In this document: positions 9,205 to 31,666 of the stretch, in pieces | Position numbering within the stretch: position 1 is the stretch's first letter | Layout: every line of letters begins with the position of its first letter | Source of the DNA: Candidatus Ratteibacteria bacterium | GTDB taxonomy: Bacteria > Ratteibacteria > UBA8468 > B48-G9 > DTJG01 | Direction of reading: 5' to 3' | DNA: 31,666 nucleotides | Assembly (NCBI GenBank): GCA_049971295.1 | Contig: JBMFLH010000009.1 | Span: 1-31,666, forward strand | Made by a program: the position numbers and the translations under genes | The notes under the pieces: generated by a model | What the model was told of the DNA's origin: nothing | What the model saw: the letters and a program-made list of their open reading frames with translations, nothing else | Databases searched by the model: none

Positions 9205-10059
9205 TTACTCCAGCCTGTATGTAAGAATCATTGGTTGACTGTTTCTCAAAATTTCCACAGTCACAAGTTTTGTCTGGCTATTGATGATGTTGTTGTACAC
9301 TGCGTATGCCTTTGAAAGGCTATCAATCAGGGTACCATTGATTCTTTTTATCACATCGCCTGGCTGCAACCCAATCTGTGAATACATTCCTCCTTCAGGG
9401 ATCCTGTTCACAGTAAAGCCCCCTACTCTGCCTTCTTCAATGTATGGAGTAACACTGATATTTGAAAAAGCAGAAGGATCATTCCTTACCTGGTCGATGA
9501 GAGCACTAAGATTGATATTTCTCGGTTGCTGGGGAATCGGAACAGAAGACGATAAAGATGTAACAGTACCAGTGGCAGATAGAGTCGTTTCAGTTGATGA
9601 CAGGATAGGCGGGCTCTTCACAGAAGTATCCTTTAAAGTAATCATCGATTTACTATCAATCTGCGGCTTTGGAAGACTAAGAGTAATTTCCTTGTCATCA
9701 TAATAAAAAATCACATTGTTTTCATTGATTTTAACCAACCGGGCATTTTCAATAATATCCCCCTCAACTATTAGTGTTTCCGATCTTTTTGATACTATCT
9801 CAATGATTGCCTTTGAGTCAGTATCAGGACTGTAGATAATTCCTTTCAAAGTGATCAAACTCTCAAGCGGTGGTGCTGGAGAAGGTTTCAGGATAGATTT
9901 TACTGGCGTTTGAGGTGGTGGCACAGGGTCAGCAAAAATCTTCCGTCTCAAAATAAGAGAATAATCATTTGCGGAAAAAGACGAAAAAACAAAAATCATC
10001 GAAAAGAAGGAAAAAATACATATTGAGCGAGTTAAACGAAAATTATTTAGGTATAACAT
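9205..10059 (-). CDS. Type II secretion GspC-like protein (HR domain + PDZ)
   Basis: N-terminal hydrophobic segment. HR-like LKGII...KAIIE...EGDIIENARLVKINENNVI. S/T/P linker. GspC-type PDZ (GFTV...GLQPGDVIKRING...VEILRN). GAGGTG RBS. Confidence 0.8.
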   Translation of the reverse strand: MLYLNNFRLTRSICIFSFFSMIFVFSSFSANDYSLILRRKIFADPVPPPQTPVKSILKPSPAPPLESLITLKGIIYSPDTDSKAIIEIVSKRSETLIVEGDIIENARLVKINENNVIFYYDDKEITLSLPKPQIDSKSMITLKDTSVKSPPILSSTETTLSATGTVTSLSSSVPIPQQPRNINLSALIDQVRNDPSAFSNISVTPYIEEGRVGGFTVNRIPEGGMYSQIGLQPGDVIKRINGTLIDSLSKAYAVYNNIINSQTKLVTVEILRNSQPMILTYRLE

Positions 10060-10076
10060 GCTCTCACCTCATAAAA

Positions 10077-10085
10077 ATTATAGCA
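10077..10085 (-). promoter_or_regulatory. Extended -10 promoter for gspC-like/amrS
   Basis: TGCTATAAT on the minus strand, just upstream of the RBS. Confidence 0.55.
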
Positions 10086-10237
10086 TAAAAAATCAGGAGC
10101 TTAAAATATTAAAAATCCCCTGCTCTATTTCACCACGCAAGAAGGTTCTCAAGGTTTGGAGTTTAAAAGTTTTTGAAAAATTCACACTTGTTTTTTCCCA
10201 AATTCCTTCTGTTTTTCCCCTGATTTCATTTAATTTT

Positions 10238-10275
10238 TACTCCTCCTTAATGTGAGCGGTAGCAAGGTTAGGATG
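10238..10275. repeat. Degenerate REP-like copy
   Basis: TACTCCTCCTTAATGTGAGCGGTAGCAAGGTTAGGATG aligns loosely with 17111-17150. Confidence 0.3.
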
Positions 10276-10400
10276 ATTAAAAAAATCTACAAACCTTAAA
10301 GCTGAAATACTGAACCGCAGAAATTCAATTAAGAATCAAATTAACATCCACCTGTTATAAATGAAGGAAGCACACCGCGAAATAGGAATAAATAAAATTT

Positions 10401-11165
10401 TTACTGAGATTGGCCACTGAACCAGAATGGATCTGTTGTTCCTGAAAACCAGACAGGAACCTGTTGTTTTGTCCTTGATTCAACGTGGCCATCGCAAAAA
10501 AGAAAGCTTGCTGTGCCAGAATGCCTGTATGCAATGCCCATTTCAGGATGGTTGAAATTTATTCTCGCATAGTAATCTGAATTATCAAGTTGTGGTCCTG
10601 GTTTCATATCACATAGCAAAAATGTCTCTGCTGGTTTCGTAATCCTTGACAGTTTAGGCCAGAATCTTAAATCAGGGTCTGAACTTGTTCCACATAAATA
10701 GCCATTAATACCATACCAGGTAGCAACTTTATTCACCGCTGGTTCCATTCCACTCCAGTTAACATTCCAGTAAGCAGAACTTTTTGGCTCCGCTGGACAT
10801 CGCAAAATTCCTGAAACCCAGTTATCCTCGCACGGGTCATACATACTGCTGTAAGCTGTAAAACCTGTTCTCGTCTGCGGAAGGTAGAAGGCAATTTGAG
10901 TAAACCACACATTAGACATTGTTGCATCCTTCGGAAAAAAACCATCCCAGTCCTCAGCATACATTGCAAAACAAACTCCAAGTTGCTTAAGATTGCTCAA
11001 ACATACTGCCTGATGCGCTCTTGCACGCGCCTTTGAAAGAACAGGTAACAGCATTCCTGCGAGAACTGCGATGATTGCTATCACAATCAATAATTCAATA
11101 AGGGTGAAGCCAATTTTTGTGTTTGTGTAAATTTCAGTATAACTCATACAAAACCTTTCTTGCAT
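10401..11165 (-). CDS. Prepilin-type N-terminal cleavage/methylation protein, DUF1559/H-X9-DG family
   Basis: G|FTLIELLIVIAIIAVLAGMLLPVLSKARARA, CLSNLKQLG, LRCP, and C-terminal RHSGTASFLFCDGHV (H-X9-DG). Confidence 0.92.
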   Translation of the reverse strand: MQERFCMSYTEIYTNTKIGFTLIELLIVIAIIAVLAGMLLPVLSKARARAHQAVCLSNLKQLGVCFAMYAEDWDGFFPKDATMSNVWFTQIAFYLPQTRTGFTAYSSMYDPCEDNWVSGILRCPAEPKSSAYWNVNWSGMEPAVNKVATWYGINGYLCGTSSDPDLRFWPKLSRITKPAETFLLCDMKPGPQLDNSDYYARINFNHPEMGIAYRHSGTASFLFCDGHVESRTKQQVPVWFSGTTDPFWFSGQSQ

Positions 11166-11172
11166 TTCCTAT

Positions 11173-11245: not shown

Positions 11246-11264
11246 CAAACAGGATAAACGAACT

Positions 11265-14200
11265 TTATCGCAATTGCAAAACAAAGTTCTTTGTCGCAAA
11301 ATGACTCAATTTGAAGTTATACTCGCCGTCAGATGGATATGTGGTTTTATAACCGGGTTTTTCAACCCATAACCTGTAATTCCCGGCAGGGAGTGGATAA
11401 AATTTATACGCGCCAGTTGAATCAACTGTATATTGCATTGTTCCTGATGTACCTTCACAATAAATGATGGCTCCTGCTGGACCACTGGTATCATTCACCT
11501 TCACAGTCCCTGAAATTGAGTATGCAACAAGGGTAAAATCTCTGCCTGTCGCATTTTGAGGAATTGACAATAAGTGAGAACCATTGGAAGGAGAAACAAC
11601 TGTATGATTGCTCAGATACGCTGTAATTGTATATGCACCAGCGGAAAGCGGTGAAAATATATAATTTCCAGTTGCATCAGGACTGGTATTGATCGTGCCT
11701 GATGGCCCTGTAAGGGTCACAGTTACATTTGTCACAGTATTTGGACTGTTCAACAAGGTTACCTTTCCAGATATATAGAATGAAGTGATAACAAAATCGC
11801 GCGTCAAATTAGAATTCAGGGTAAATTTATATTTCCCATTATTTGGCACAATGACTGTATAGTTTGGAATGCTCGCGCTTAATTCGTAATCACCCCTCGG
11901 GACAGGTTTGAACTGATAATAACCGTTTTCGTCAGGTGTTGTGGTTCTGTCAACACCAGACCCTTTCAAAGAAATAACAACATCAGTCACATTACCATTC
12001 GCCTGATAGAAAGAGACCTTGCCAGAAATTACATACGAAACAAGAGTAAAGTTCTTGCCAGTGGCATCAGGTCCAAGAGTAATAGCATAACTTCCATCGC
12101 CAGAAGGAAGCATTGTTGAATAATCGGTTAAACTTGCGCTGATTTTATATGTGCCAGCCGGCAGTTGCGAAAATTCATAATAGCCTGACGCGTCAGGATT
12201 TGTTGTCGCCATCAAGGAACCATCCTTTTCACATTTAACTGTGACAGTTTGTACATCAGCATCTCCAATAAGTTTTACTGCGCCTGAAATCTTGTAAGTC
12301 GCAAGCACAAAATTGTACCCACTGATATTTTTATTTGTTAAGGTAATTTTATAAATTCCACCCGCTGGAGCGATGGTCGTATAATCAGCCAACGAAGCGG
12401 ATAAATCATAAGTCCCTGGTGAAAGTCCTGAAAGGGTGTAATTCCCTTTTTCATCCGGGTAGGTAGTTAGTCCTGCTGCTGAAATGGCAACATCTGTCAC
12501 CTTTTCTGTTCCACCCTGCAATTTCACATTTCCTGAAACAGATAGCAGGATTGATGCAGTAAGGTCAAAGTTTTTCAGGTCAGCATCCGGACCCACAGTG
12601 ATTTTGTATGAGCCCGAAACAGGGTTTGTCACAGCGTAGCCATCGAGTACTGCATATACCTCATAGTTTCCAGGTAGAAGCCCGGTATATTCATAGTAAC
12701 CAGTTCCATCTGGTTTTGTTGTCTGTTTGTTGCAATAAATAACAACAGAAGACATTTTCCCTGTACCACCAATAAGATTTACTTTTCCTGAAATTGTGTA
12801 AGTTTTTACGATTGTGAAATTGCAGTTCTGGGCATCAGGACCTAATTTAACCTTGTAAATATTATTTGTCGGACCTATCACAAGATATCCTGGTATTTCA
12901 GCGTGTACTTCATAGGTTCCTGCAAGAAGATCTGAAATCGTATACCTGCCAAATGTATCAGGATTTACGATAGCGCCCGAACTGCAGATAATCTGAACCT
13001 GGGTCACATCTCCATCTGTAATTGAAACTGTTCCAGTAATTGAATAGGTCGGAATTGCCTGCATTGTAAAATCAACACCCGCAACGTCCCTATCATAGAG
13101 TTTCACTGTCTGCCTGCCAGAGCCACCAGGATTTGATGTCACGTATTTCGACAACTCAATCCAGAGCTCATAACTCCCAGCAGGCAGGTTTGTAAACGAG
13201 TACTTACCATTGACATCAGGATTCGTTGTCTTGTCAATATTTGTGGTTTTGTCTTTGCAATGGATAGTCACACTTGTTACAACACCTGTTCCACCAGCAA
13301 GAGTTACAGTACCGCTGATTTTGTAAGTTGGTACTGGTTCAGGCGCAATAGTAAAATTGATATTTGAAACTTCAGGGCTTGCATCATTGACAACAACATA
13401 ATAATGTCCACCATTGACAACCGGGAAAGTTGTTTTATAACCAAGCCGTTCAACATAGACATCGTATGTGCCGGCATTAAGATTTTTGAAATAATAGTTG
13501 CCATAACCATCAGGATATGTTTTATAGTCACCGCAGTGAACGACGATCTGATCTGGTTTGATTCCTTCACCAGAAACAGCAACATTTCCTGAAATCGTGT
13601 AACCACCCAGTGTGGTCCCTGGCATCATGAGAAAATCAATATTTGTCGCTGATGGGGGAACATAAACCTCATAGCCCCAGTTCAGACCTGCTTCTCTTGG
13701 CCTCAAGGAATAATATTTTTCAAGTTTTACCCTGACTCTATAATAACAGCCGGGCTCAACCCCTTTGAAGTTGTAATAACCATTTTTATCAGGATTGACG
13801 ACAAGCCAGTCAATTTCATTGCCACCTTTTTTGTCAAGTCTTGCTGCTGTGACTGTCGCCTTTGTCAGGTCCGCTGTACCTGAATAAAGCGCAAGTTTTC
13901 CTGAAATTGAATATGTCGCAAGAATGAAGTTTCTCACTTCGTCTTTACTTGTAACAGTTACATCATAATAACCAGCGGATGGAGAAATGCAACCATAGCC
14001 AGCAAGTTTTACTTCAACTCTATATGGATTGCCAAGTTTCAATGAGGGGACAAGATTATAAAATGCGTAGTTTCCACTCTCATCAGGATGCATCACCACA
14101 TAGACATTTGGAATGTCTGGATTTTTGCTGGTTGCTGAACAAATGATTGTGACATTAGTAATAGGTTCATTTCCAGGGGTGATAAAGCTCACATTTCCTT

Positions 14201-16304
14201 TTATCGCATAACTCACAAGATAAAAGTCCTTGCCTGTGATATCTTTGTTAGTAATCGTTATGATGTAAGAATCTGTTGTCGGATAAACTGTTTGATATCC
14301 TGTCAAACTCACATAAAGTGTATAGTTTGCTGGCACGAGATTTGAGAATTTGTAATTTCCTGAACTATCTGGAATTGTAGTAAATGTGATGTAATCCTTT
14401 TTCACACTGTTGTAATACTGGCATACAACGAGGGCTTCATATGGATTGCAGGTTCCACCACTCAAAGTAATTTTTCCTGATACTGAATATTTCGCCACTG
14501 GTTCCACCAAGAAATTTTTTCCTGATGCGTCAGGGCCAACAGTCACATCATACCTTCCAGAAGCAGGGTTTGTAACCTTGTATCCCTGCGGAATTTCAAG
14601 ATAAATTCTGTAAGTTCCTTCAGGTACATTTGAAAAATTGTAAGTACCATCATTGTCAGGATGAATTGCGAAGCTGATGCTTGTGTCTGACAGACAATCA
14701 TAATGGACCTTTACATCAGGCGCCTTTATCACTCCTTCAGTAACATCAACCTTACCACTGATGCTGTAATACAAAATTGGCACAAGTTCAAAATCCTTGT
14801 TCTGCTGGTCATTCTGAAGATTATTAATGGGTATTACAACCATTGTGTCACTCCAAACATTATCACTGATTCTCACGCGGCTTGTCTTGTATCCGTCTAA
14901 TTTTACCCAGACCTGGTAATTATTGCCCTTTACAAGATTTAAGAACGAGTATTTTCCTGTGTTGTCAGGAGTTGCCTGGCCTGTAATACCCGAATTAAGA
15001 TTTTTGCAATAAACTGTTGCCTTAGTGAAATCTCCTATTCCTCCGATTAATTTTACTGAACCTGAAATGCTTGCAACATCGGTTCCAGGAATATAGGTAA
15101 ATACAAAGTCCTTTCCTGTTGCGTCAGGTCCAACAGAAACAGTGTACTCTCCGCCAGATGGGAAAGTAATTGCATAATCAGTATTACTGATAGATGCCCT
15201 CACTTTATAAGTTCCAGCAAAAACGCCTGGAATAAAATAATTCCAGTTTGCATCAGGATTGACAGGCGTATAACTGCCACAGGTAATCGTAACATCTGAA
15301 GGATCCACGCCAGAACCGCCTGTAATTGTAACTTTTCCTGCAATGGTGTAGGTGTTTTTGTAAGCAAGGGTGAAATCAACGCCTGTTTTTATAAACGCTG
15401 GTGCATCGGCATTATCCGGAATTTTGATTGAATAATGCCCGCCATTTTCAACAGGATATGCGATTCTATATCCAGGCAGTTCAGCATAAACATCATATGT
15501 GCCTGGAGGCAGGTGCAAAAATTCAAACTTCCCCATTGAATCACAATTTACCGTATTTCCACCGCAATGAACAACAACATCTGTATATGAACCCGTTCCA
15601 CCACTGATTGTCACTTTGCCTTTGACATCATAACCGACCTTAAATGGTCCAATGGTTAAGAAAAATGGCTGGAATGCACCAGTATAGTCATAGTCACCAC
15701 TGATTTCATTTAATTTATTGTGCGAGATAACAATCAGATACCAATCTCCACCCCTGTTTTCAGTAATAACCCAGTCCCCTGCCCCCCATAGGGTATCCTT
15801 TTCTTCAGGGATGTCATACTTATTTGTTGACCACTTTATATGATAATGATCTACCCAGCCAATACCAAATGGAATAATGTTTGAGAAAGTAAATTTTGTT
15901 CCCATGTTATAGCAGACACCTGTCGCTTTGTCGTAACTAATTTGCGGGTCGTAAGGTAGAGTCCAGATTTCGTCACTCGTATTGCACCATGCGGTCTCGT
16001 CTTTATCCCCATTTCTTGCTTTTGCCCTGAATCTATAGGGTGTGTTTGGATCAAGGTCCTCAACGCACCAGTAGGACCAATTGTGATTGCACGTCCATGT
16101 GGTCCCACTTTTTGATAGAACACCGTTTTTCAGGTAATGTTCAAAGTGTGTCGCACCCGGGTCAGCACCCGACATAGCATCAAGCGGATCATAATCATTG
16201 TTATATTTCCACCAGCCATCGGTGCTGGGCGGCGCAGGGTTAAATTTGGTAACACCTTCTGTGTTAAATGTCGTATTTGCTATGTTTTTCCAGTGGTAAT
16301 CTCT
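11265..16304 (-). CDS. Large surface protein, 3' part: end of an FN3 domain plus 16 carboxypeptidase-regulatory-like (transthyretin-like) repeats. No own start; frameshift continuation of 16280-16858
   Basis: 16 repeats of ~85-95 aa with consensus YxISGxV..GG...VxVxC..PD..GxYxFxxL..GxYxV...GY...P..GxY.ITxGPDA.GKNF. The frame is open from 16304. There is no RBS or signal peptide at ATG 16175. Confidence 0.85.
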   Translation of the reverse strand, partial: RDYHWKNIANTTFNTEGVTKFNPAPPSTDGWWKYNNDYDPLDAMSGADPGATHFEHYLKNGVLSKSGTTWTCNHNWSYWCVEDLDPNTPYRFRAKARNGDKDETAWCNTSDEIWTLPYDPQISYDKATGVCYNMGTKFTFSNIIPFGIGWVDHYHIKWSTNKYDIPEEKDTLWGAGDWVITENRGGDWYLIVISHNKLNEISGDYDYTGAFQPFFLTIGPFKVGYDVKGKVTISGGTGSYTDVVVHCGGNTVNCDSMGKFEFLHLPPGTYDVYAELPGYRIAYPVENGGHYSIKIPDNADAPAFIKTGVDFTLAYKNTYTIAGKVTITGGSGVDPSDVTITCGSYTPVNPDANWNYFIPGVFAGTYKVRASISNTDYAITFPSGGEYTVSVGPDATGKDFVFTYIPGTDVASISGSVKLIGGIGDFTKATVYCKNLNSGITGQATPDNTGKYSFLNLVKGNNYQVWVKLDGYKTSRVRISDNVWSDTMVVIPINNLQNDQQNKDFELVPILYYSISGKVDVTEGVIKAPDVKVHYDCLSDTSISFAIHPDNDGTYNFSNVPEGTYRIYLEIPQGYKVTNPASGRYDVTVGPDASGKNFLVEPVAKYSVSGKITLSGGTCNPYEALVVCQYYNSVKKDYITFTTIPDSSGNYKFSNLVPANYTLYVSLTGYQTVYPTTDSYIITITNKDITGKDFYLVSYAIKGNVSFITPGNEPITNVTIICSATSKNPDIPNVYVVMHPDESGNYAFYNLVPSLKLGNPYRVEVKLAGYGCISPSAGYYDVTVTSKDEVRNFILATYSISGKLALYSGTADLTKATVTAARLDKKGGNEIDWLVVNPDKNGYYNFKGVEPGCYYRVRVKLEKYYSLRPREAGLNWGYEVYVPPSATNIDFLMMPGTTLGGYTISGNVAVSGEGIKPDQIVVHCGDYKTYPDGYGNYYFKNLNAGTYDVYVERLGYKTTFPVVNGGHYYVVVNDASPEVSNINFTIAPEPVPTYKISGTVTLAGGTGVVTSVTIHCKDKTTNIDKTTNPDVNGKYSFTNLPAGSYELWIELSKYVTSNPGGSGRQTVKLYDRDVAGVDFTMQAIPTYSITGTVSITDGDVTQVQIICSSGAIVNPDTFGRYTISDLLAGTYEVHAEIPGYLVIGPTNNIYKVKLGPDAQNCNFTIVKTYTISGKVNLIGGTGKMSSVVIYCNKQTTKPDGTGYYEYTGLLPGNYEVYAVLDGYAVTNPVSGSYKITVGPDADLKNFDLTASILLSVSGNVKLQGGTEKVTDVAISAAGLTTYPDEKGNYTLSGLSPGTYDLSASLADYTTIAPAGGIYKITLTNKNISGYNFVLATYKISGAVKLIGDADVQTVTVKCEKDGSLMATTNPDASGYYEFSQLPAGTYKISASLTDYSTMLPSGDGSYAITLGPDATGKNFTLVSYVISGKVSFYQANGNVTDVVISLKGSGVDRTTTPDENGYYQFKPVPRGDYELSASIPNYTVIVPNNGKYKFTLNSNLTRDFVITSFYISGKVTLLNSPNTVTNVTVTLTGPSGTINTSPDATGNYIFSPLSAGAYTITAYLSNHTVVSPSNGSHLLSIPQNATGRDFTLVAYSISGTVKVNDTSGPAGAIIYCEGTSGTMQYTVDSTGAYKFYPLPAGNYRLWVEKPGYKTTYPSDGEYNFKLSHFATKNFVLQLR

Positions 16305-16858
16305 TCAATATAAAAACCTGAATCGTTTGGAACAAAATAGCCAAACCGTGAAAATGAATCAGTAGTCGTAAGATTTGAAGGAAGTGGAGGCGTCAATTTA
16401 ACTGTCAGTCGAGCTTTCTTGGACAAGAAGTCAAATCCCTTTGGTCCGAAAGCAAGCCCTGCAGGAGGTTCAATTGCTGTATAAAATGCGACCCTATAGG
16501 GCACCCAGGAACTTGGTGAAATACCATCAGTATTCCACGCCTGAATAATGCGTCTGTACTGAGTATTCGGCGCAAGACCTGTCTCAGTATAAGACACTAT
16601 ATTTGCATTTACTGACCAAACAGGGTCATGACTCAAAAGATATACCCAATCACTTCCAACTTTCTCATAGTACCATTCATAACACTTAAATCCCTGTTCA
16701 TTGTTTGAATTATCGTCCCATCGCCAGTAAATAGCGCTTGTGGTGTTCAGGGTGTGCTTCAAGTTTCCTGGTGCTGCTGGCGGCGCTGCTTTGAGCGAAA
16801 CAGAAAATACAAAAATTCCCATAATCAGACACAAAATCTGATTTAGTTTTTTATGCAT
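16280..16858 (-). CDS. Large surface protein, 5' part: signal peptide + FN3 domain
   Basis: AGGAGG RBS before ATG 16858. Signal peptide MHKK...SLKA|A. FN3 (PAAPGNL...WRWDDNSNNEQGF...TGLAPNTQY...AWN). A second FN3 begins and is cut by TAG. Confidence 0.82.
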   Translation of the reverse strand: MHKKLNQILCLIMGIFVFSVSLKAAPPAAPGNLKHTLNTTSAIYWRWDDNSNNEQGFKCYEWYYEKVGSDWVYLLSHDPVWSVNANIVSYTETGLAPNTQYRRIIQAWNTDGISPSSWVPYRVAFYTAIEPPAGLAFGPKGFDFLSKKARLTVKLTPPLPSNLTTTDSFSRFGYFVPNDSGFYIEEITTGKT

Positions 16859-17110
16859 CGTTCCTCCTAATTTTTTTGTCAAAAATTGTAATAGTGGTCT
16901 TTGCAATTTTTCTCCATCCATGAAATCACTTCAAGTTTTTTCAAAAAATGCTTTTTTCTTTCTCAATGCCAACTTTAGTTCTGATACAATCAAATCTATC
17001 ACTTCAACCATTCTTCAACCTGCTCTTTCCTTGTAAAAGCTACATAACTTTAGATAAAGCTCTAAACCTCAAGGCACTTTTCGCCTTGATTCTTTCTAAC
17101 TTTCTTTTGA

Positions 17111-17150: not shown

Positions 17151-17169
17151 AAAAAATAGTTCAAAATTT

Positions 17170-18974: not shown

Positions 18975-19148
18975 TCACCCTGTCCTTTGCCCTTTCCACG
19001 GGTCACAACCTGCTTTCTGAATGGAGTCAATCCTATTTTTCAACTTCCTCAAATATTTCACCGCAGCATCTCTGTCGTTATCAAGCAGAATTTTTTCAAT
19101 CTCAATCATTTCCGCAGTATCAAATTCTAAAACGATTTTTGGTTTCAT
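18975..19148 (-). CDS. Small hypothetical protein, 57 aa (not in the ORF track)
   Basis: MKPKIVLEFDTAEMIEIEKILLDNDRDAAVKYLRKLKNRIDSIQKAGCDPWKGQRTG*. GAGGT RBS overlaps the upstream stop, 7-bp gap, amphipathic helical pattern. Confidence 0.72.
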   Translation of the reverse strand: MKPKIVLEFDTAEMIEIEKILLDNDRDAAVKYLRKLKNRIDSIQKAGCDPWKGQRTG

Positions 19149-19155
19149 AACGACC

Positions 19156-23800: not shown

Positions 23801-24442
23801 TCTCGGAGTTCCTGATGAGTGGGCATTGTCAAATTCTTCAGGAAGTATGTCAGCAATCAACATTTCACACACGATAGAACCAGTGGTTACGCCTGCATTT
23901 GTGGCATCCCCCTCAAGAACCGGGCTTATCGTGACGCCAAGAGAAAGAATCGAAAATGTTGCACTGCTTCCATCAATGCAATCGTCAGCTGTTCTGATTG
24001 CAACGAAAAAATCATTCCCTGCATTACCGCCTGAGTCATCCGGAGGAAGCAGTGGTCTGCGATCAGGAGGAATTTTAATTGTTCCAACTCCACCGGTTAC
24101 ACCGAGAATTGTACCAGAGCGGTCGATGATGACTGAAGAATCAACAAAAAAACCTCCTGTCGCTTGCATGGTTAATGCAACGCTAACCAATCTTTGTGGA
24201 TTTGTGGCTGCTGAATCTGATGCAAGATTTAAGCCAAAAATAATGATATATCCTTCGCCGAACGCATTTTGGCCGATGACATTTGACCACGGATGATGAG
24301 GAGCACCATTAGTGTTTGGCAGAATACCCTGATTATTAACAACGTACGAAGTTACAGTATTAACCGTAACTTTTGAATGAACATAAGGAACAAATAATAA
24401 AGTAAAAATTAATGCTACCACCAACCTTTTTGTTTTTCTCAT
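20828..24442 (-). CDS. Large secreted surface protein: ~4 internal repeats, 2 FN3-like domains, CFI-box-CTERM plus TM tail
   Basis: Signal peptide. GGAG RBS fits ATG 24442. Repeated G[IL]TLW[KR]D..D and D[FY]F[VI].[IL]RT motifs. FN3-like ITLNW...L.DGVTYNY and YRYRVIA. GGGGGCFIATAAFGS...LRQFRD..L...GR.FV.WYYRHSP. Confidence 0.85.
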   Translation of the reverse strand: MRKTKRLVVALIFTLLFVPYVHSKVTVNTVTSYVVNNQGILPNTNGAPHHPWSNVIGQNAFGEGYIIIFGLNLASDSAATNPQRLVSVALTMQATGGFFVDSSVIIDRSGTILGVTGGVGTIKIPPDRRPLLPPDDSGGNAGNDFFVAIRTADDCIDGSSATFSILSLGVTISPVLEGDATNAGVTTGSIVCEMLIADILPEEFDNAHSSGTPRYPAYYQWQPGEMIRPRYDRIPMSYDYANSPLPIPTVPMIHYVPQVIPWETPKAVLAIGCAQRNVTPSGDANPNIQDPPEALNSITLIITDTGVSDFDPNNFFRNRNVLFYEPENPFSMPGITLWKDTDGNGTWDPASDQLLKYQMSGFTPTGNPGEWKVSLSPVDNTGDAIDDIADQNYDYFIVITIASAGDTGEPNITIGGDFKIWIPSGGILFGPLSYPQQYAGISQNKVKDIYHNLYVENICQSYVDPTDTNDAPDLTSNVIPVFALNIASGPTKYFPVEYIQRIRIDLLAYENIDPSDIAPLRDDNYSGLTLWRDNKSQAGMTSFGNFDSSDTLIPCKFSSNPSGPFDFHWASDGYDSSVGAYRYHTYMTPTGVLTDPGTVYSDDTAIDTTNVFSGDDFFICLRTSSTLPYGSKFQLYIPASEIILAGSKQVISTHEIFSTKITGNVFTKLTPLVLQGATIAPQSDPTPVMKVEISDNNSGKNPSLTGITVEFYNRGGFTLDDLASFATLSAWYDAATGWYNVTNFSADALKQCGVVIYRGSSSGPDYNSPVIITRYKFLTSSMFDTPSGYVFEFQSPVTIPCTLYVVIRTSASMSPGDAFSVGIVGWGGTEIDWNTWASRAIPVVDRNGIRSNAYARKYTEPFNSVLGGTLDLYATPSFSGITLNWANRTNVNQSEFISYEIWRTDSISGETSITVIPVPAGWSATSYFDIATHTEPGGLLDGVTYNYTLVMSYLRGGKQFTIQSNRVSTKIYGFPYSMTPSKPTAVASTDGIAIWFMDKSQEPYKATRWRIQRAVEYDYKRKLPGDLTVFTDITTVDTVPTFYAPYVDSRIESDVVYRYRVIALRDLRVGGETRIAESYPSDLSDPAANYSGSSAPSGGGGGCFIATAAFGSPLAKEIVILRQFRDRILLKTDTGRRFVNWYYRHSPTVANYISQHSVIKFCVRVLLYPLIAFAWIVLHKMWLYSVIIALCAAVFIRSRQKKVC

Positions 24443-24509
24443 ACTTTTCAACTCCTTTTTTCAATCATTTTATGCCCTGCTTGTTCTATCAGTACTTCTA
24501 TTTTTAACT

Positions 24510-24620: not shown

Positions 24621-26435
24621 TTATCCAACAATTTTGCCACACATCCATACAATTGGTTTCAACATTCCCCTTACAAATGCTTTAATTTTTGGCTTATCCT
24701 TGATAAAATCAGCAATAACAGGGCTATGTCTGTAATAAAATCTTACAAATGCTCTACCCGCCCTTGTTTTCAGCAGTTTCTGGTCCCTGAACTTTCGCAG
24801 CGCTTCCACTTCTTTCGCAAAAGGTGTTCCATACGCTGCTGTTGCAATAAAACAACCACTGCTACCTGAATGAACAGGTGGAATTGGAGTACCAATTGAA
24901 AAATAATCGTTTCCCTTTAATTGTTCGGCATTAAGCCGTACTTTAATATACATTTCCTCCAGATTTCTTTCTGTCACATAAGATGTAATGTCTTCCCAGT
25001 TGTTGTTTTCCCCAGGCCAGTGATACACATGTGCTCTGGCTAACGTCACGCTTGTATCAACGAGTGCTAATTCATCATACCTGACAGGTATTTTTATATC
25101 CACAGTATCACCTAAATTCAAGGTGAAGTTTGAACTCAAAAGATATGTATTTTTAAAACCTACGACATTTATTAGTTTTGTCGGAATGTATGTAGATTCA
25201 ACATATCCAACCTTAACCTGTGGGTTTGGCTCTGTAACTCCTGATGAGTTGAAAAACGCAAAAAGATTATAACCAAATGGGTCTGTATAAAACTGGGTTT
25301 CAGTGAATAAATTGTCTCCAGCCCAGATTGTACCTATTGGTACTGTCTTTGAAAAAGTGTCTGAATACCCGGTTGAATATAATGAATAATAAGATGGTGC
25401 GCTGCCATCATCAAAACTAAAGATTCTGTAATAATTTGTATCAACAACAGTATCGTCTATAAACGAAGTTTTTTTATCGGTTGTGTCCTTGAATACGCAG
25501 ATTGCGCCACCAGGTAAACTACTTCCAATAGTATAACTTGTTCCATTTACTGGTTTATCGTCCCATGCAAGAGGTGCATTCTTTCTAAAAATAATTGTCC
25601 CAGTAAAACAGTTTGGATTCTGCCAAGTCAGAAGTATCTCATTAAATAGCCCGCTTGCTGAAAAATCAGAAACAGGAGAAGGACTTCCCACAATTGCAGA
25701 TACTTTTACATTCACAGTATTTATACCATCATTGAATGCAATCATACCTGTATGCGACCCGGATGTAAGAAGTGTTCTTACAATCTGCGCCTGAACCTGA
25801 GTACTCCGGCCTGAACCCAAAGAACCAGAATTCGGATTTATTCTTAACCAGCCAGTAATCCCATCGTCAGTGGTGATTGCAGAGGTCCAGTTTATAGGTG
25901 TGCTGCCAAGATTTGTCAATGTAATGGTCGCTGTTGTGTCAACAGTTCCAAAATGAAGGGACTCTGGTGAAGCGCCAAAACCCGTAGGCGGTAGTGAAAT
26001 ACTCGTTTGGCCTCCAACAGGAATAATCTGCATGTCAGTGCCATCAAAGTATTTTACCACCCCGTTAAAATTCTGAACACCTGTGGCATCTTCAGGAATA
26101 CTGACAGAATACCTGATAATAACAGAAGAAATACCAGTGGCACTAAACTCAAGCCAGGAATAAGTTGATGGCGCAGTAAACTTGTTCACAGGGAGATTTG
26201 ACGAAGTAATCTGCCAGGTTTCAGGTATTGTTTCTTCAACGATCACTGCTCGCGGCATACCAGTGATTTCGACTGAAAGAGTAATATCAATCCTTTGTCC
26301 TGGCAGATAGGTTGGAGAAGAAAAACTTCTTGTGGCATTGACAGAGATCTGTGGCCAGGCACAAGAAATACCGATTCCACAGAGCAAAGAAAAAACATAC
26401 ATTACGGTTTTTTTCACGATTGTTTTATCCAGCAT
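24621..26435 (-). CDS. Secreted protein: cohesin-like + BACON-like + FN3-like + beta domain + CFI-box-CTERM
   Basis: GGAGG RBS fits ATG 26435. ATRSF...Y.PG...IVEETIPETW; SPESLHFG...ITLTNLG...WLRINPNSGSL; PSPVSDFSA...LTWQNP; SSGCFIATAAYG...LRKFRD..L. Confidence 0.85.
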   Translation of the reverse strand: MLDKTIVKKTVMYVFSLLCGIGISCAWPQISVNATRSFSSPTYLPGQRIDITLSVEITGMPRAVIVEETIPETWQITSSNLPVNKFTAPSTYSWLEFSATGISSVIIRYSVSIPEDATGVQNFNGVVKYFDGTDMQIIPVGGQTSISLPPTGFGASPESLHFGTVDTTATITLTNLGSTPINWTSAITTDDGITGWLRINPNSGSLGSGRSTQVQAQIVRTLLTSGSHTGMIAFNDGINTVNVKVSAIVGSPSPVSDFSASGLFNEILLTWQNPNCFTGTIIFRKNAPLAWDDKPVNGTSYTIGSSLPGGAICVFKDTTDKKTSFIDDTVVDTNYYRIFSFDDGSAPSYYSLYSTGYSDTFSKTVPIGTIWAGDNLFTETQFYTDPFGYNLFAFFNSSGVTEPNPQVKVGYVESTYIPTKLINVVGFKNTYLLSSNFTLNLGDTVDIKIPVRYDELALVDTSVTLARAHVYHWPGENNNWEDITSYVTERNLEEMYIKVRLNAEQLKGNDYFSIGTPIPPVHSGSSGCFIATAAYGTPFAKEVEALRKFRDQKLLKTRAGRAFVRFYYRHSPVIADFIKDKPKIKAFVRGMLKPIVWMCGKIVG

Positions 26436-26468
26436 ATTCATTCCTCCGTTAAATTTTCCATCGTTCTA

Positions 26469-28883
26469 TCAAATACTGTTCCAGAAAGGTTCTGTCGTTG
26501 GAGCGTAGGTATATCCACTATGAGCCCAGAAGTCAATTGTTTTCAATAGCCAGAAGTCCCACTGAGACAAATTCATAGGCCAGCCATCAATCTGTAAGTT
26601 TTTTGACCATCTATCTATGGTATAAAGAAGTTCACTATCTGAAATTTCCCAATCTCCGTCTGTATCAGAAGGACAATTGGGTTGTCCATAAACTATATAA
26701 GAGCCCCCTTTAGTCATTGTTCTTGTTGTTCCATCTGTCACACTGCCATTTATAAAGTTCCAGGTTCCTTCAACAGGAATTGACTGGAATTCAATTTTCA
26801 ATTTCAATGTGCCATCAGTCAAAGGAAAGATTGAGCCAATGTTATTTGAAACAATCCACTTTACTGTGCCTGTGGTATTTCCACTGCTTGTATATGGATA
26901 CAGTGCCACATCATTAAACCACGCACCCTTAATTTCCCAGTTGGCTGATGCACCGGCTGCAACTGTCGGCAATTGTTCTGTAATAATAAAGGAAAGAGGT
27001 GGATTCAATCTGTTGATACTGATGTTAAGACAATAATAATACGCAAGATTTCTGTCAATCCTGTTATAGATGAATTGTCTGGAAACAGTCACTTTTTCAG
27101 AAATACTTTTTGTCCAGGAAAATCTATCCTTAGGAACAACTGATAATATTGTTTCAGTTGTACCTGTATCAAGATTTACGATAATAACCGGCCCAGAGAC
27201 AAATGCGATACGGTTATCACTTTCCCACGGCGAAAATTGTGGATAATAACCGGTCTGAGATATCAGTAACGACTGGCCCGAACCATCAGAATTCATAATA
27301 TAAATTCGAGGAATACCATCTCTTGTGGTGACAAAAACAACTTTATTTCCATCAGGAGAAAAACAGGGTTGAAAATTTTCGCTTCCTGGTGTTTGCGTAA
27401 GATTCACTGGAGAACCAGTTGCTGAAATACTGGTGGATGTAATTTTTATCGGCATAGAAAATATCTGACGGCCAGACGATGTTGAACCGGTGTAAACAAT
27501 TTTAGAGCCATCAGGAGAAAAACACAGGTCAGATTTTTCTACTGTTGAGGTATTGGTAAGCCGAAAAGCAGAACCACTCAAATCAATTCTTCTTGCGTAG
27601 ATGTCGTTTGAAATCACGTAAGCAACCCAGTTGGAATCAGGAGAAAAGGCTGGATACTTTGCGTTGGAATTGGACTCAATCTGAACAGAATCTGTTCCAT
27701 CTGCCTTCATCACCCAGATGCCATTGCCAGAGTAAGCAATCAAACTGCCTGTCGGGTCAAAAACAGGATAAGAATTATTGCCAACACTTGACGTCAATTG
27801 AACAATACGGTCAGAAGCATCACGCAGGTATACCTGAGATGGTAATCCTGATGTATAAACAATCTGCGTTGGCCTTGCCTTTACCGGATAATAAACTGGA
27901 TATTTTGCGTCAGCACTATCTGGAATCTGTCTCGCATAAGGATTGATTGCGCCAATCTGCGTTAGATAAAGCATTTTTGTCTGATTGAACGGGCTTCTAC
28001 CAGAAAACACCAGCGCTGTATCAGTGCCTGTGGAATCAATGATTGAAACTGGCTGTGGATCATCCTGATATAAAGGTTGTTCTATGAAATAAAGATTTGT
28101 TAGTATGTCTGTGCTTGAACCTGATTGTACATCATATCTGCTAATTTTCCAGTTTGAATAACCACTGGCTGATTGCGTTTGCGTTGCGTAAAAAAACGAA
28201 GAATGGCTATTGTTTAACATTGGTCTGCCCAATCTCGGAAAATACGGTCCAAAAACACCATTGTTTGTCAGATTCGTCTGATCAGAACCAGTTGTTGAAA
28301 TCAGGTAATAATCCTCAAGATAGCCAAGTTTGTGTTTGAAAATGATATGACTGTCGTCGAGAAACTGAACATCTGAACAATCGCCATCCATCAAAGTTAA
28401 TTGTATCAATCTTTTTAATCCAGTTAATTCTTTCAACCACAGTTGTCTGCCTGAAAATGGACCAGGATTTCTCATTTCAGCAGTGAAGGCGAGTTTTGTC
28501 ATATCAGGGCTCAAAATGCCTGAAACCTGATTTTTTGTTTGAGCCAATAGTTGTTGTGTTGAACTTAAATTCTCAAGTCCACTTCCATCATTATTCACAC
28601 AGTAAAGAAGTGTTTCTGAACCTGTGTTTGCCTTATAGGAGAAAACAATCTTTGTCCCATCAGAAGAAATTGAAGGATCTGTCAAAACACCTGCACCAAT
28701 AGCAATTTCAAGTCGTGTGAGACGGGTGGATGTATCAGTGGAAAGGTTATTCACCCAGAGATTATTGTCTTTTACAAAATAAACATAACCAGAGTACTGT
28801 GTTTGCGCCAAAGCAAAATTTATACTCACAAAGCCAGCAAAAATTCCCAGTATCCCCTTTACTAAATTAAATAGTTTCTTCAT
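26469..28883 (-). CDS. Secreted double TolB-like (PD40) beta-propeller protein with cohesin-like and dockerin-like C-terminal domains
   Basis: Signal peptide MKKLF...ALA|Q. Many P.FSPDG.KI[VA]F repeats. IITEQLP...W...VKW domain. DTDGDWEISDSELL..I..W tail. ATG 28883 overlaps the upstream stop (ATGA). Confidence 0.85.
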   Translation of the reverse strand: MKKLFNLVKGILGIFAGFVSINFALAQTQYSGYVYFVKDNNLWVNNLSTDTSTRLTRLEIAIGAGVLTDPSISSDGTKIVFSYKANTGSETLLYCVNNDGSGLENLSSTQQLLAQTKNQVSGILSPDMTKLAFTAEMRNPGPFSGRQLWLKELTGLKRLIQLTLMDGDCSDVQFLDDSHIIFKHKLGYLEDYYLISTTGSDQTNLTNNGVFGPYFPRLGRPMLNNSHSSFFYATQTQSASGYSNWKISRYDVQSGSSTDILTNLYFIEQPLYQDDPQPVSIIDSTGTDTALVFSGRSPFNQTKMLYLTQIGAINPYARQIPDSADAKYPVYYPVKARPTQIVYTSGLPSQVYLRDASDRIVQLTSSVGNNSYPVFDPTGSLIAYSGNGIWVMKADGTDSVQIESNSNAKYPAFSPDSNWVAYVISNDIYARRIDLSGSAFRLTNTSTVEKSDLCFSPDGSKIVYTGSTSSGRQIFSMPIKITSTSISATGSPVNLTQTPGSENFQPCFSPDGNKVVFVTTRDGIPRIYIMNSDGSGQSLLISQTGYYPQFSPWESDNRIAFVSGPVIIVNLDTGTTETILSVVPKDRFSWTKSISEKVTVSRQFIYNRIDRNLAYYYCLNISINRLNPPLSFIITEQLPTVAAGASANWEIKGAWFNDVALYPYTSSGNTTGTVKWIVSNNIGSIFPLTDGTLKLKIEFQSIPVEGTWNFINGSVTDGTTRTMTKGGSYIVYGQPNCPSDTDGDWEISDSELLYTIDRWSKNLQIDGWPMNLSQWDFWLLKTIDFWAHSGYTYAPTTEPFWNSI

Positions 28884-31288
28884 ATTCTCTTCCATAAGTA
28901 TGTTCCCTGCAATCTGCTATTTGTCATATCGTATGTATAACCCGCCTGATTTGCCCATAAATCAATTGTCGTAAGAAGCCACGTATCCCAATCATTCAGA
29001 TTTTCAGGCCAGCCGGAAATTCTTCCATTGATTGACCATAGGTAAATAATTTTCAATAATTCCTCATCAGAAACCTGCCAGTCAGAATTTGTATCAAAAG
29101 GAAGATGCGGATTGGTAATTTTGATAGACGAACTTCCTTTTGTAAATGTCTTAATGCCATATGTGTCGCACCAGCTGGAAAATACCCTGAAATTCCCATA
29201 GATTTCTGAAGCAGGGTTTGTGGTTTTTATGGTAATTTGAACAACGCTATCCTGAAGCGGAGCAATACCTGACGGACCAAAAAGCCACTTCAATGTACCC
29301 GTGGTTGCGCCATTGCTTGTCAATGGAGATGGCGTATATCCATTAATTTTTGCATCAAAAAGCTGCCAGTTATCAGGAATTACCTCAGTAAGAATTGCAC
29401 TGCCTGGCAATGGAATTCTATCAACGTGAAGAATCAGATAATAGGTAAATGAAATGTATGGATCTCTTTCCGTGATGCTCATTATCCTTTCGGCTTCGAC
29501 CACATCAGCTGGCGCATTGGAAACGCGCAGGTGCTCGGCGCCAATTTGTGTAATGACAGGTGTAATATTTTGCTGCGATATATCAGCTCTGCAAATGAGT
29601 TGAGGATTGCCTGACAAATAATAAATGATGTTTGAATTATCAGCAGAAAAGCACGCGCTTGATGGATTTACGGGATTATTTGTAGCAAATAAAACTTTTC
29701 TCTGCTGAGAACCGTCTCGTTTCATAAGCCACACTTCTGGCAATTGATTCCTGGTTGAAATAAAAACAATCGTGTTTCCATCAGGTGCCCATGATGGACT
29801 GTAATTCTCATAGGTCAATGGTGTGATATTTCTTGGAGCACCAATGGTAATACTCATCGGCGCACCATAGGAAATTTGAACAGGGCTGACAAAAATATTT
29901 TTCTTTCCATTCACTGTGGCAGTGAACGCAATTTCCTGTGCCAGTGGTGAAAAACTGATGTCACCAATCACATTACCGGTAAAAGTCAATCTGATAGAAG
30001 ACCCTGAACCATCAGACCTTTTTGCATAAATGTCGCCATTTTTCACGTACAGAAGCCATAAGCCATCAGGAGAAAATTCAGGGTAGTCAACAGATGAATT
30101 TGGGTCAATCTGAACAATGCCTGTTCCATCGGGTCTGACAACATATAACCCGCTTGCAGACACAAAGGCAACCAGGGTGCCTCTTCTATTTATTGCTGGA
30201 TGGCGATTCCCACTTCCAGCAGTAATTCGGGTAGCATTTCCATTTTCATTTCTCACGTACACATATCCGGCCTGAGAATAAACATATCTTTGCAACTGCG
30301 GTGATGTCGTCACAAAAACAGGCAATGTTGTATGCAAAGCGCCAGAAGTCAATCGTTCTGAATATGGATTGACAACAGGAATGTTTACAGTGTATAAGTC
30401 ATAAACATTTCCTGCCAGGGTCCCGCAAAAAAAGATCGCGGTATCTGTTTCTCCATAGGCGGGATATGGCTCTTCTTGAAGCAATGGGTTGGTCTCAGCA
30501 AAATAAAGAAAGTCGGTGATTAACTTTTCTTTGCCGGTACCGTCAAGCGACATTAACTGATATATTTCCCATTTTCTGTATCCAGCAATTTCCTGTACCT
30601 GCTTTGCGTAAACAATTGCATTTCTTGCAGCATTCAGCATAGGTCTGCCAAGCCGTGGAAAATATGGAGACAAAGATTCATTATTGGTAAGGTTGGTCAG
30701 TACCCCTGCAGTTGTCACAGTATAATAGTTTTCAAGGTACCCGTTTTGCATTTTGAGGAGAATCGTACTATTGTCAATAAAAGAAGGATAGGAGCAATTC
30801 CAACCTGGGTCAAAGGTTAACCTTCTTCTGTTTGTGCCGTCGCTATTGCAAATATAGAGTTGATAAACAGATGGATTATCTCTATCGTTGGCTGTGTATG
30901 CAATGGTATTGCCGTCTGGAGAAACAGCGACACCAGTATAGGAGACCTCTGTATCAGGTGAAAGAAAATCGGTCAACCCGCTGCCATCAAAATTCATCCG
31001 CCATATTGTGGGATTTGGTCTTCCATTTGCAGGTGAACTTCTTGTAAAATATATCAATCTTCCTGAACCATACGAAGAAATCGTTAAAATCCTGCCCTGG
31101 TCTGTTTGTGCAAATGTGGTAAGAAGACTTGTTTCACCAGTGGATGTATCATAAAAAACGATGTTTGAACTATTGCTTGAAGAAGTTTGAGAACAGATTA
31201 CTCCAGATGTTTGAGCAAAAACATAATGCGCAAAGGCAGCAAACATAAACTCTGAAATACACAACCACCTGCATATTTGATTCTTCAT
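28880..31288 (-). CDS. Paralogous double TolB-like beta-propeller protein with cohesin-like and dockerin-like C-terminal domains
   Basis: Signal peptide ...VFA|Q. SPDG/WAPDG PD40 repeats. ILTEVIPDNW...LKWLF. DTNSDWQVSDEELL.II.LW tail. Confidence 0.85.
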   Translation of the reverse strand: MKNQICRWLCISEFMFAAFAHYVFAQTSGVICSQTSSSNSSNIVFYDTSTGETSLLTTFAQTDQGRILTISSYGSGRLIYFTRSSPANGRPNPTIWRMNFDGSGLTDFLSPDTEVSYTGVAVSPDGNTIAYTANDRDNPSVYQLYICNSDGTNRRRLTFDPGWNCSYPSFIDNSTILLKMQNGYLENYYTVTTAGVLTNLTNNESLSPYFPRLGRPMLNAARNAIVYAKQVQEIAGYRKWEIYQLMSLDGTGKEKLITDFLYFAETNPLLQEEPYPAYGETDTAIFFCGTLAGNVYDLYTVNIPVVNPYSERLTSGALHTTLPVFVTTSPQLQRYVYSQAGYVYVRNENGNATRITAGSGNRHPAINRRGTLVAFVSASGLYVVRPDGTGIVQIDPNSSVDYPEFSPDGLWLLYVKNGDIYAKRSDGSGSSIRLTFTGNVIGDISFSPLAQEIAFTATVNGKKNIFVSPVQISYGAPMSITIGAPRNITPLTYENYSPSWAPDGNTIVFISTRNQLPEVWLMKRDGSQQRKVLFATNNPVNPSSACFSADNSNIIYYLSGNPQLICRADISQQNITPVITQIGAEHLRVSNAPADVVEAERIMSITERDPYISFTYYLILHVDRIPLPGSAILTEVIPDNWQLFDAKINGYTPSPLTSNGATTGTLKWLFGPSGIAPLQDSVVQITIKTTNPASEIYGNFRVFSSWCDTYGIKTFTKGSSSIKITNPHLPFDTNSDWQVSDEELLKIIYLWSINGRISGWPENLNDWDTWLLTTIDLWANQAGYTYDMTNSRLQGTYLWKRI

Positions 31289-31322
31289 TTACGAACCCTG
31301 TTATTTATTATGCGCCTAATAA

Positions 31323-31351
31323 ATTTTACAACACCAGGTCGTGGATGTCAA
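31323..31351 (-). promoter_or_regulatory. Sigma70 promoter for the propeller/CFI-box operon
   Basis: TTGACA (31351-31346)-17 bp-TAAAAT (31328-31323). Confidence 0.75.
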
Positions 31352-31478
31352 AAAATCTACGATGAAACCCGAAATCAAAGACCCGAAAAACCCCTCTCGC
31401 TTTAAACTTTCGTAAAGGGCAAGATAAAATTTCCTTCAATCCTCCTATTGTAGCGGGTTTTAAAAAACTCAAGGCGGC

Positions 31479-31511
31479 AAAAAACAGGGCGGGATTTCTC
31501 CCGCCCTGTTT
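31479..31511 (-). terminator. Rho-independent terminator
   Basis: Minus strand AAACAGGGCGGGA-GAAA-TCCCGCCCTG-TTTTTT, ~20 bp after the stop at 31531. Confidence 0.92.
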
Positions 31512-31530
31512 GTGGCATTCTCAAAGATGC

Positions 31531-31665
31531 TTAATCATTCCACTTACCCTGAGTCCAGTACATTTCAGGAACCGGCGTACCAGTTGCACCTTTCTTATAG
31601 GTGTTCGGACCCACAAATTGGTATTCACCGGCAACTGTGGATGGATCTGTGACCTGTCCACCAGA
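31531..31665 (-). CDS. C-terminal fragment of an upstream gene, probably a surface protein
   Basis: Open frame ...SGGQVTDPSTVAGEYQFVGPNTYKKGATGTPVPEMYWTQGKWND* followed by a strong terminator. Confidence 0.7.
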   Translation of the reverse strand, partial: SGGQVTDPSTVAGEYQFVGPNTYKKGATGTPVPEMYWTQGKWND

Positions 31666-31666
31666 A

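Follow-up and report, generated by a model that had tools for sequence, protein, structure and literature searches.

A conserved island of secreted-protein genes with two gspC genes in a Ratteibacteria genome

The 31,666-nucleotide stretch of DNA analysed here (hereafter the window) is an entire contig, C9, of a genome of Candidatus Ratteibacteria bacterium (G000; 1.89 Mb, 92% complete; other genomes and contigs are likewise given as G- and C-numbers). Close homologs of its proteins carry the NCBI name 'Candidatus Omnitrophica bacterium', under which Ratteibacteria had been annotated according to a preprint (10.1101/2023.11.21.568195). All of the 13 long ORFs at 9205–31288 are located on the minus strand, as expected from the initial annotation, which was made from the letters of this DNA and described a co-oriented block of genes for secreted proteins; its two GspC-like PDZ genes, prepilin-like gene and giant repeat protein were confirmed as well (Table 1). 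The core of the block consists of genes for two beta-propeller proteins (prop802 and prop808), two proteins with a CFI-box-CTERM tail (cfi606 and cfi1207) and GspC2, followed by genes for three small proteins (lp292, s143 and lp165); GspC1 is encoded at the other end of the block. We give about an even chance to the reading that this conserved island, together with its two gspC genes, likely specifies an adhesive surface coat (protease-bearing in most relatives), that the coat is likely exported by a single type II secretion system (T2SS) with GspC2 as a probable dedicated substrate adaptor, and that the domain shared by six of the proteins is likely a CLIPPER/DUF11-type stalk or export tag, not a cohesin. 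Cellulosome-like displays of dockerin-bearing peptidases are already known. The relocation and duplication of gspC are the most surprising result of this study and the one most worth following.

Conservation of the island and relocation of gspC

A synteny check in relatives, as proposed in the initial annotation, revealed that the genes are not scattered. The core order prop802-prop808-cfi606-cfi1207-gspC2 was intact on one contig in at least six of the eight genomes sampled (G001, G009, G013, G016, G018 and G044; the stretches from G006 and G008 covered other parts), and the five-gene core spans three families of the order at 34–46% identity. The genes lp292-s143-lp165 come next after the core in G001, G008, G009 and G013, and with one gene inserted in G018. 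The profile of the shared domain matched 21 of 61 relatives and that of the propeller C-terminus 22 of 61; across the phylum, 22 of 65 genomes were matched, all within one order. The shared domain and the Trp-rich tail, which ends both propellers, co-occur in 20 of the 23 genomes with the cluster.

The gspD-M run of the source genome, recognised by eye from translations, is on C7 and lacks gspC. Besides one PDZ match in a protease, the only GspC-like genes found in this genome were the two in the window. Both products resemble the GspC of known systems (EpsC/OutC; NF041515) in having HR and PDZ regions: a PDZ domain was detected in GspC1 and GspC2, and PF11356 matched GspC1 with an E-value of 9.9e-6, just below the cut-off. 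In the outgroup family (f5), gspC immediately precedes gspD-E-F in all three loci. In contrast, gspC1 has no gsp neighbour in the fetched stretch at any of the 28 order-level loci, and gspC in this order is also duplicated and sits amid cargo genes. In a GspC tree of 42 rows (midpoint root, three long branches, G023 left out), the GspC1 clade comprised 31 rows including the three operonic f5 genes, and the GspC2 clade comprised 11 rows from three families, both with support of 100/99. A second gspC was found in 17 of 23 cluster genomes versus one of the 29 other genomes of the order (the cluster and non-cluster sets were compiled by hand, and the genomes are related, so this and the other co-occurrence counts are not independent). 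Judged from these sequence comparisons, GspC1 is a relocated housekeeping copy, orthologous to the operonic gspC of the outgroup family, and GspC2, an old paralog, goes with the cluster. The initial annotation regarded both as dedicated GspC paralogs; this fits GspC2 but not GspC1.

The gene gspC1 lies immediately before an AmmeMemoRadiSam gene in 20 of the 28 order-level loci and one gene apart from it in two more, and no functional link between the pair is apparent. All six loci of genus g8 have gspC1 immediately after CFI-box genes, and the two such genes scanned carry C25-like or S8 domains.

One may suppose that the island is merely a place where surface genes accumulated beside a relocated housekeeping gspC, so that its products form no single complex and GspC2 is a redundant duplicate. 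The distal members do vary by genome (the giant gene, the prepilin, the transposase-like ORF and the dockerin genes), the shared domain is common in databases (4289 representatives at E ≤ 1e-3), and gspC1 persists where the cluster was not found. Nevertheless, the order of the five-gene core is fixed across three families in spite of the low identity, and GspC2 is retained where the cluster is present and mostly absent where it is not. We therefore regard this explanation as quite unlikely.

On C7 (G000:C7:10001-30000, L071), gspD-M is preceded by a second secretin gene with pilM/N/O-like genes and followed by three DUF1559 prepilin genes, and a 270-aa HEAT-like ORF occupies the slot where the f5 genomes have gspC. 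A third secretin of G000 belongs to a pilus-like locus on C23.

The shared domain, the Trp-rich tail and the cohesins of the lineage

The initial annotation assigned one cohesin-like domain to six proteins. That lp165, s143, lp292, cfi606, prop802 and prop808 share one domain was borne out: the first four were linked by phmmer (pairwise E-values of 1e-13 to 6e-3), and both propeller copies by profile-profile comparison (hhalign, alignment A3 versus A4; probability 98.4%, E 9e-15). The term 'cohesin-like' survived for the fold but not for the sequence family. At E ≤ 0.1, no ORF among the 13 of the cluster matched Cohesin (PF00963) or dockerin (PF00404), the lineage's own cohesins gave an hhalign probability of 1.5% against the shared domain, and a lineage cohesin HMM reached a best E-value of 0.31 among the window ORFs. 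When 62 copies of the shared domain from the lineage were scanned at E ≤ 0.5, DUF11 (PF01345) matched 21 of them, with 1.6e-7 as the best E-value, and the 25 families listed out of 29 did not include Cohesin. Among 40 database homologs hand-picked from the best 150 matches and then scanned for families, DUF11 was detected in 17 (E ≤ 1e-4), Dockerin_1 in three and Cohesin in none. PDB sequence searches with alignments A3 and A4 gave matches that were weak or unrelated. Altogether, the sequence comparisons favour a relationship of the shared domain to DUF11/CLIPPER and not to Cohesin.

The structure of the domain was predicted by AlphaFold with high confidence, both for the cfi606 copy (pLDDT 96.7) and for a propeller copy with its tail (pLDDT 94.0, pTM 0.85 as one unit). 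Foldseek placed the crystal structure of a CLIPPER (DUF11) domain, 9ifr, at rank 1 (E 2.6e-7, TM 0.70/0.69), with cohesins among the next rows (TM 0.53–0.66). CLIPPER was also at rank 1 in VIA (Z 12.3, rmsd 2.6, 115 aligned), together with CnaA pilin/adhesin domains at Z 12.1; for the propeller copy, CnaA domains came top (Z 12.3) and the best cohesin reached Z 9.3. In the Atlas structure search, rows named DUF11 appeared at TM 0.80. Foldseek, VIA and Atlas thus agree on a CnaA-like Ig fold. As CLIPPER, CnaA and the best cohesins tie in VIA, the fold alone neither proves nor excludes a cohesin.

The conserved residues of the domain are an Arg in strand 1 (61 of 62 copies) and a Glu as the conserved acid (62 of 62). 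The Lys/Asp/Asn isopeptide triad, which is variable in the family, was not found: no Lys or Asn is conserved, the latter in the strand examined under our inferred mapping onto 9ifr. The domain therefore probably lacks an isopeptide bond. CLIPPER domains usually make adhesin stalks, and some of them have no isopeptide bond (PMC12617251). Relative to the domains described there, the window copies differ in occurring once per protein, also as solo domains in lipoproteins, and in their conserved Arg/Glu. Database homologs of the shared domain frequently carry it in tandem in secreted proteins, including those of Altiarchaeota. A rough sorting of the best 150 homologs by C-terminus, with class names coined for this analysis, gave 45 FYR-like, 24 Trp-tail/dockerin, 13 transmembrane, two CFI and 66 other. 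The domain is thus a generic tandem module with exchangeable C-terminal tails, and is likely a stalk or export-tag module of the CLIPPER/DUF11 type rather than a cohesin. The ~45 of 150 homologs that combine several tandem shared domains with the FYR-like C-terminal motif (among P0027-P0166) appear to form a conserved family of surface proteins that belongs to another lineage and is as yet uncharacterised.

The second half of the proposed pair was a dockerin-like module at the end of two proteins. The C-terminal ~70 residues of each propeller comprise a single EF-hand-like loop and two long helices, with Trp at invariant positions. The second repeat of this tail keeps the helix motif, but its loop is gone, and the duplicated F-hand of Ca2+ loop plus helix is not present. 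Comparison with the canonical dockerins of the same genome gave an hhalign probability of 0.2%, the score of 10.2 being inside the range of 30 column shuffles (5.2–13.2). The tail found no solved dockerin in the PDB at E ≤ 10, while the canonical dockerins of the genome match 10 PDB sequences at E ≤ 0.01. Within the domain-plus-tail model, the tail is predicted as three helices (~pLDDT 94); the structure-search lists for this model held no dockerin, but they were filled by the sandwich domain and are uninformative on the tail. Membership in PF00404 was accordingly rejected on account of the single loop, the missing profile match and the shuffle-level score, and what is left of the claim is a likeness at the motif level with one EF-hand-like loop. 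The tail does match a shorter Trp tail of database homologs (hhalign 93%), which in turn weakly resembles the first dockerin repeat (hhalign 37%). The lineage thereby defines a widespread type of Trp-rich EF-hand tail. Dockerins with a single Ca loop can be functional according to a published report (PMC12270676), so a docking role is conceivable for the Trp-rich tail.

Genuine cohesins and dockerins are present elsewhere in the genome. Cohesin matched twice on C47, and there are nine canonical dockerin tails, carried by a clostripain (peptidase family C11), an M14 carboxypeptidase and other proteins. Two dockerin proteins encoded on C31 start with the shared domain. An Ig-like module directly before a dockerin, as in these two C31 paralogs, recalls the X-Doc dyad, that is, the combination of an X-module and a dockerin. 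Three further propeller/Trp-tail paralogs are on C31 and C101, and genes of the C9, C101 and C31 types stand together in one locus of G009. A 1272-aa protein of G009 is built of a cohesin, a CFI box and a barrel-like tail, and matches both the end of C47 (66%) and C109 (67%); the CFI-anchored scaffoldin of G000 is therefore probably split across these two contigs. A 1655-aa homolog of this scaffoldin is encoded directly before lp292-lp165 in G041 and G044. Cohesin is present in 19 of 23 cluster genomes versus five of 38 others. An anchored, cohesin-bearing scaffoldin with dockerin-tagged enzymes thus occurs in the genome and the lineage but not in the window: the architecture postulated in the initial annotation, in which CFI-box-anchored cohesins capture dockerin proteins, exists in the lineage with other players.

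On C31, a vWA-domain ORF overlaps the next propeller ORF (L001:9288-13015); the two are probably one frameshifted gene, whose counterparts in G006 (1140 aa) and G005 (1233 aa) are uninterrupted.

In light of these data, we consider it unlikely that the shared domain is a functional divergent cohesin that, in its lipid- or CFI-anchored copies, binds the propellers by their Trp-rich tail as a single-loop 'dockerin', as first proposed. The window sandwich does superpose on cohesins, including non-cellulosomal ones (Z up to 11.9), and the tail, like the type I dockerin, has a 12-residue EF-hand-like loop followed by helices. The shared domain is often followed by a dockerin or a short Trp tail and can occur in three to six tandem copies as in a scaffoldin; domain and tail are found together in most cluster genomes; the single loop has working precedents among dockerins; and the short tail that recalls the first dockerin repeat is archaeal. 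However, no sequence link leads to Cohesin, even to the lineage's own cohesins, and the dockerins of the genome are already provided with true cohesins. The tail lacks the second Ca loop, has invariant Trp residues and matches dockerins at the shuffle level. Besides, the domain-plus-tail unit was predicted confidently as one body, suggesting packing in cis like that of an X-module, and the lp292 orthologs appear to be anchored in the inner membrane.

Putative surface proteins in relatives and neighbouring genes

The Pfam scan found no catalytic domain in the secreted proteins of the window, in agreement with the initial annotation, but the statement does not extend to the lineage. Five prop808 orthologs from outside the genus are 1378–1414 aa long, and the one scanned carries an N-terminal Peptidase_C25 domain (gingipain family; E 1.3e-55). 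A His-Gly and a Cys, presumably the C25 catalytic dyad, are aligned in all five. The prop808 of the source genus has no Peptidase C25 domain.

Both CFI-box tails named in the initial annotation scored far above the curated cut-off of 40 bits for NF041770 (95.6 and 97.5 bits). CFI boxes were found in 51 of 61 genomes and are thus not specific to the cluster. For cfi1207, the best Atlas score was 0.86, in a row without family; a query across the named genomes returned a single locus (L118, 61% identity), so the range of this protein was not widened. The two lipoproteins, lp292 and lp165, were verified by their lipoboxes. The lipobox of lp292 is kept in three of three same-genus orthologs, but four of four orthologs from other genera have a Cys-less hydrophobic N-terminal anchor, which argues against a surface-anchor role for lp292; lipid anchoring as initially claimed therefore applies to its own genus.

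The anchoring of lp292 also bears on the idea of a periplasmic or envelope-spanning scaffold, in which little is displayed and the TolB-like propellers remain within the envelope together with the lipoproteins and soluble GspC-like adaptors. Such a scaffold would accommodate the TolB-like propellers, the signal-peptide-like N-termini of the GspC proteins, the Cys-less anchored lp292 orthologs and the small solo-domain proteins. Nonetheless, a TolB function of the propellers was rejected, as TIGR02800 gave 98.9 and 84.6 bits, far below the cut-off of 343, and a tol-pal-like locus with its own TolB-like gene is on C62. Surface proteins typically carry features of the kind encountered here (adhesin-type repeats, C25 and S8 proteases, dockerins, CTERM tails), and gspC1 follows CFI-box arrays in g8. 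A scaffold of this kind is, in our view, distinctly improbable.

Several larger proteins of the lineage are related to those of the island. Near a paralogous cluster, a 4184-aa protein (L034:7448-19999, G016:C43) has a cfi1207-like region, RCC1 repeats, BACON domains and a C-terminal dockerin. In the C109 ORF (L003:2-2422) and its homologs (L119:5709-9524, L042:3655-8619 and L121:2080-7044), the CFI box is internal; a transmembrane segment comes after it, then another signal-peptide-like stretch and finally a C-terminal domain with the look, by eye, of an outer-membrane beta-barrel. This arrangement points to a polyprotein that is cleaved at the CFI box or beyond it, and it may show how the CFI box is processed.

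Displays of a comparable kind have been described from metagenome-assembled genomes (MAGs). According to one report (PMC8542988), the cellulosome-like protease/glycosidase complex of Ca. Stygibacter (Cloacimonadota) includes dockerin-tagged peptidases, C25 among them, and the 'planctosome' of Planctomycetes is a similarly MAG-inferred display; non-cellulosomal dockerins were noted in Omnitrophota in another (PMC10066038). The lineage studied here shares with the former a non-clostridial cohesin/dockerin display with dockerin-tagged peptidases, and the occurrence of gingipain-like C25 and S8 peptidases. However, the Ca. Stygibacter scaffoldin, as presented there, has multiple cohesins and a CTD anchor, whereas the one found here has one cohesin, a CFI box and a barrel-like tail; the C25 protease here is part of a propeller protein that ends in a Trp tail and not in a dockerin, and the cargo genes have gspC genes among them. 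Among the papers listed in our literature searches, none was seen to describe the CFI box, the present locus or gspC paralogs linked to cargo, although subscription papers or bioRxiv supplements might contain the locus.

Among the remaining genes, the giant one is broken into two ORFs (16280–16921 and 11265–16175) where an apparent frameshift coincides with a short A run near 16289, and is a single ORF of 1916 aa in G009 and 1901 aa in G008; the DNA repeats of the window correspond to its protein repeats. The initial annotation did not mention this break, the transposase-like ORF or the propeller fragment at the contig end, nor that the two gspC-like genes have no further counterpart among those found in the genome. 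A DUF1559 prepilin gene stands 3' of the giant gene in G009, G008 and G007. It was rejected as a specific part of the system, since 26 ORFs of G000 matched the family and the gene is not beside the core in G013 and G018. In the transposase-like ORF, a His replaces a Tyr kept in three of three aligned homologs, which we assume to be the catalytic residue of REP-associated tyrosine-transposase-like proteins; going by this substitution, the ORF is likely inactive. ORFs of the same type also adjoin cluster genes in G044, G016 and G041 (L040:2208-2867, L042:10315-10986, L072:4119-4877 and L121:1-555). The 57-aa ORF had no Pfam match, and none was present at that position in the relatives listed. 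The true start of GspC2 is probably downstream of 20900. The candidate promoter before the first propeller gene is likely the start of the operon; sigma-70-like sites are not enriched across the region (49 versus 40.9 ± 6.0 in shuffles), and what supports this call is its position. A GC-rich hairpin with a T run, identified by eye, follows the propeller fragment at the contig end. The Rfam search of the window gave no match. Positions 1–8089 carry housekeeping genes (for a tRNA m1A methyltransferase-like protein, an MgsA/RarA ATPase, a 5-formyl-THF cyclo-ligase and an FGGY sugar kinase) and genes for a DUF4838 protein, a UroD-like protein and an 8-oxoguanine glycosylase.

Table 1. Features of the window and their coordinates
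Feature	Coordinates	Strand	Description
Truncated C-terminus of a further propeller/Trp-tail paralog	31531..31666	-	Resembles a C31 propeller tail (59% by tblastn)
Candidate promoter, sigma-70-like, best-scoring (11/12)	31323..31351	-	Immediately upstream of the first propeller gene
prop802 (802 aa)	28880..31288	-	Signal peptide, PD40/TolB-like beta-propeller, CLIPPER-like beta-sandwich at ~aa 594-725, Trp-rich tail
prop808 (808 aa)	26469..28895	-	Domain architecture as prop802
cfi606 (606 aa)	24621..26441	-	Shared domain N-terminal, BACON_2 and other beta domains, CFI-box-CTERM
cfi1207 (1207 aa)	20828..24451	-	Secreted; internal repeats without assigned family, CFI-box-CTERM, transmembrane helix and basic tail after the CFI box
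GspC2	20037..20900	-	HR-like and PDZ; GspC paralog linked to the cluster
lp292 (292 aa)	19156..20034	-	Lipoprotein in its own genus; long Ser/Thr/Pro linker, shared domain C-terminal
57-aa ORF	18975..19148	-	Between lp292 and s143
s143 (143 aa)	18351..18782	-	Signal peptide and one shared domain
lp165 (165 aa)	17869..18366	-	Lipoprotein with one shared domain
REP-associated tyrosine-transposase-like ORF	17170..17853	-	Profile matches
Giant secreted gene	11265..16921	-	FN3 and many CarboxypepD_reg/SdrD_B-like repeats
DUF1559 / H-X9-DG prepilin-like protein	10401..11165	-	Profile matches
GspC1	9205..10059	-	Housekeeping GspC ortholog, next to the AmmeMemoRadiSam gene
AmmeMemoRadiSam radical SAM gene	8193..9200	-	330 bits versus cut-off 220; downstream of gspC1

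A model for export and display

If the island specifies an adhesive coat exported through the T2SS, the cargo would be carried to the periplasm by Sec, and the HR and PDZ domains of GspC would then bring the Ig-domain-bearing cargo to the secretin. After export, the Gly-rich/Cys tail would keep the CFI-box proteins tethered. The Trp-rich tail, predicted to bind Ca2+ and placed in the slot of a sorting or anchor module, would hold the propellers via a partner, and in parallel the canonical dockerin proteins would dock onto the separate cohesin–CFI scaffoldin. The small proteins lp292, s143 and lp165 would probably serve as accessories of GspC2 on the periplasmic side.

Two lines of published work are relevant to this model. 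In V. cholerae, EpsC's PDZ domain is needed for VesB, and the Ig fold of VesB bears the T2SS signal (PMC12369372). GlyGly-CTERM and MYXO-CTERM cargo proteins require the T2SS and Synerg-CTERM co-occurs with it (bioRxiv 2023.06.07.544157); in the accessible part of that preprint, the CFI box is not among the CTERM signals. The putative cargo of the window resembles these proteins in its Gly-rich linker and tail with an invariant Cys. The window differs from these systems in that the GspC proteins have signal-peptide-like N-termini and no processing enzyme is assigned to the CFI box.

Several observations weigh against the model. The scores of the two GspC proteins for GspC_delta NF041515 (E 2.5e-25 and 1.2e-18; 89.9 and 67.9 bits) are below the cut-off of 150 bits, and the N-termini of both look, by eye, like short cleavable signal peptides and not like inner-membrane anchors; their role in the machine may consequently differ from that of the textbook GspC. 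No second gspC was found in six of the 23 cluster genomes (63–92% complete), G019 has one without the cluster, and the relatedness of the genomes lessens what the co-occurrence counts can tell. The CFI box of cfi606 has no trailing transmembrane helix, and no CPBP-type sortase scored above the cut-off in G000, where rhomboid and exosortase families were not searched. As to the shared domain, the window copies fall below the DUF11 cut-off, and VIA did not separate the C. perfringens cohesins 2w1n (Z 11.9, rmsd 3.0, 118 aligned) and 2vo8 (Z 11.8) from CLIPPER. Finally, the domain is absent from cfi1207 and the giant protein, which rules it out as a universal export tag.

A bolder version, which is doubtful at present, would hold that in this order GspC became a modular adaptor for cargo. 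In this scenario, gspC left its operon, gained a signal peptide and was duplicated; GspC2 and the three solo-domain accessories now travel with the cargo island and read the Arg/Glu variant of CLIPPER as an export tag, and the Trp-rich EF-hand tail acts as a novel docking module that has a receptor of its own. If this is the case, one secretin machine would be reprogrammed by exchangeable cassettes of GspC and cargo.

How the T2SS selects folded cargo is an open question, and the pair of a housekeeping GspC and a GspC inherited with the cargo permits a swap of the PDZ and Ig partners in recognition. The linkage of the CFI box to gspC and to true cohesins in this lineage suggests a purpose for the CFI box, and, with this lineage, a phylum that has hardly been studied gains a surface system for protease display.

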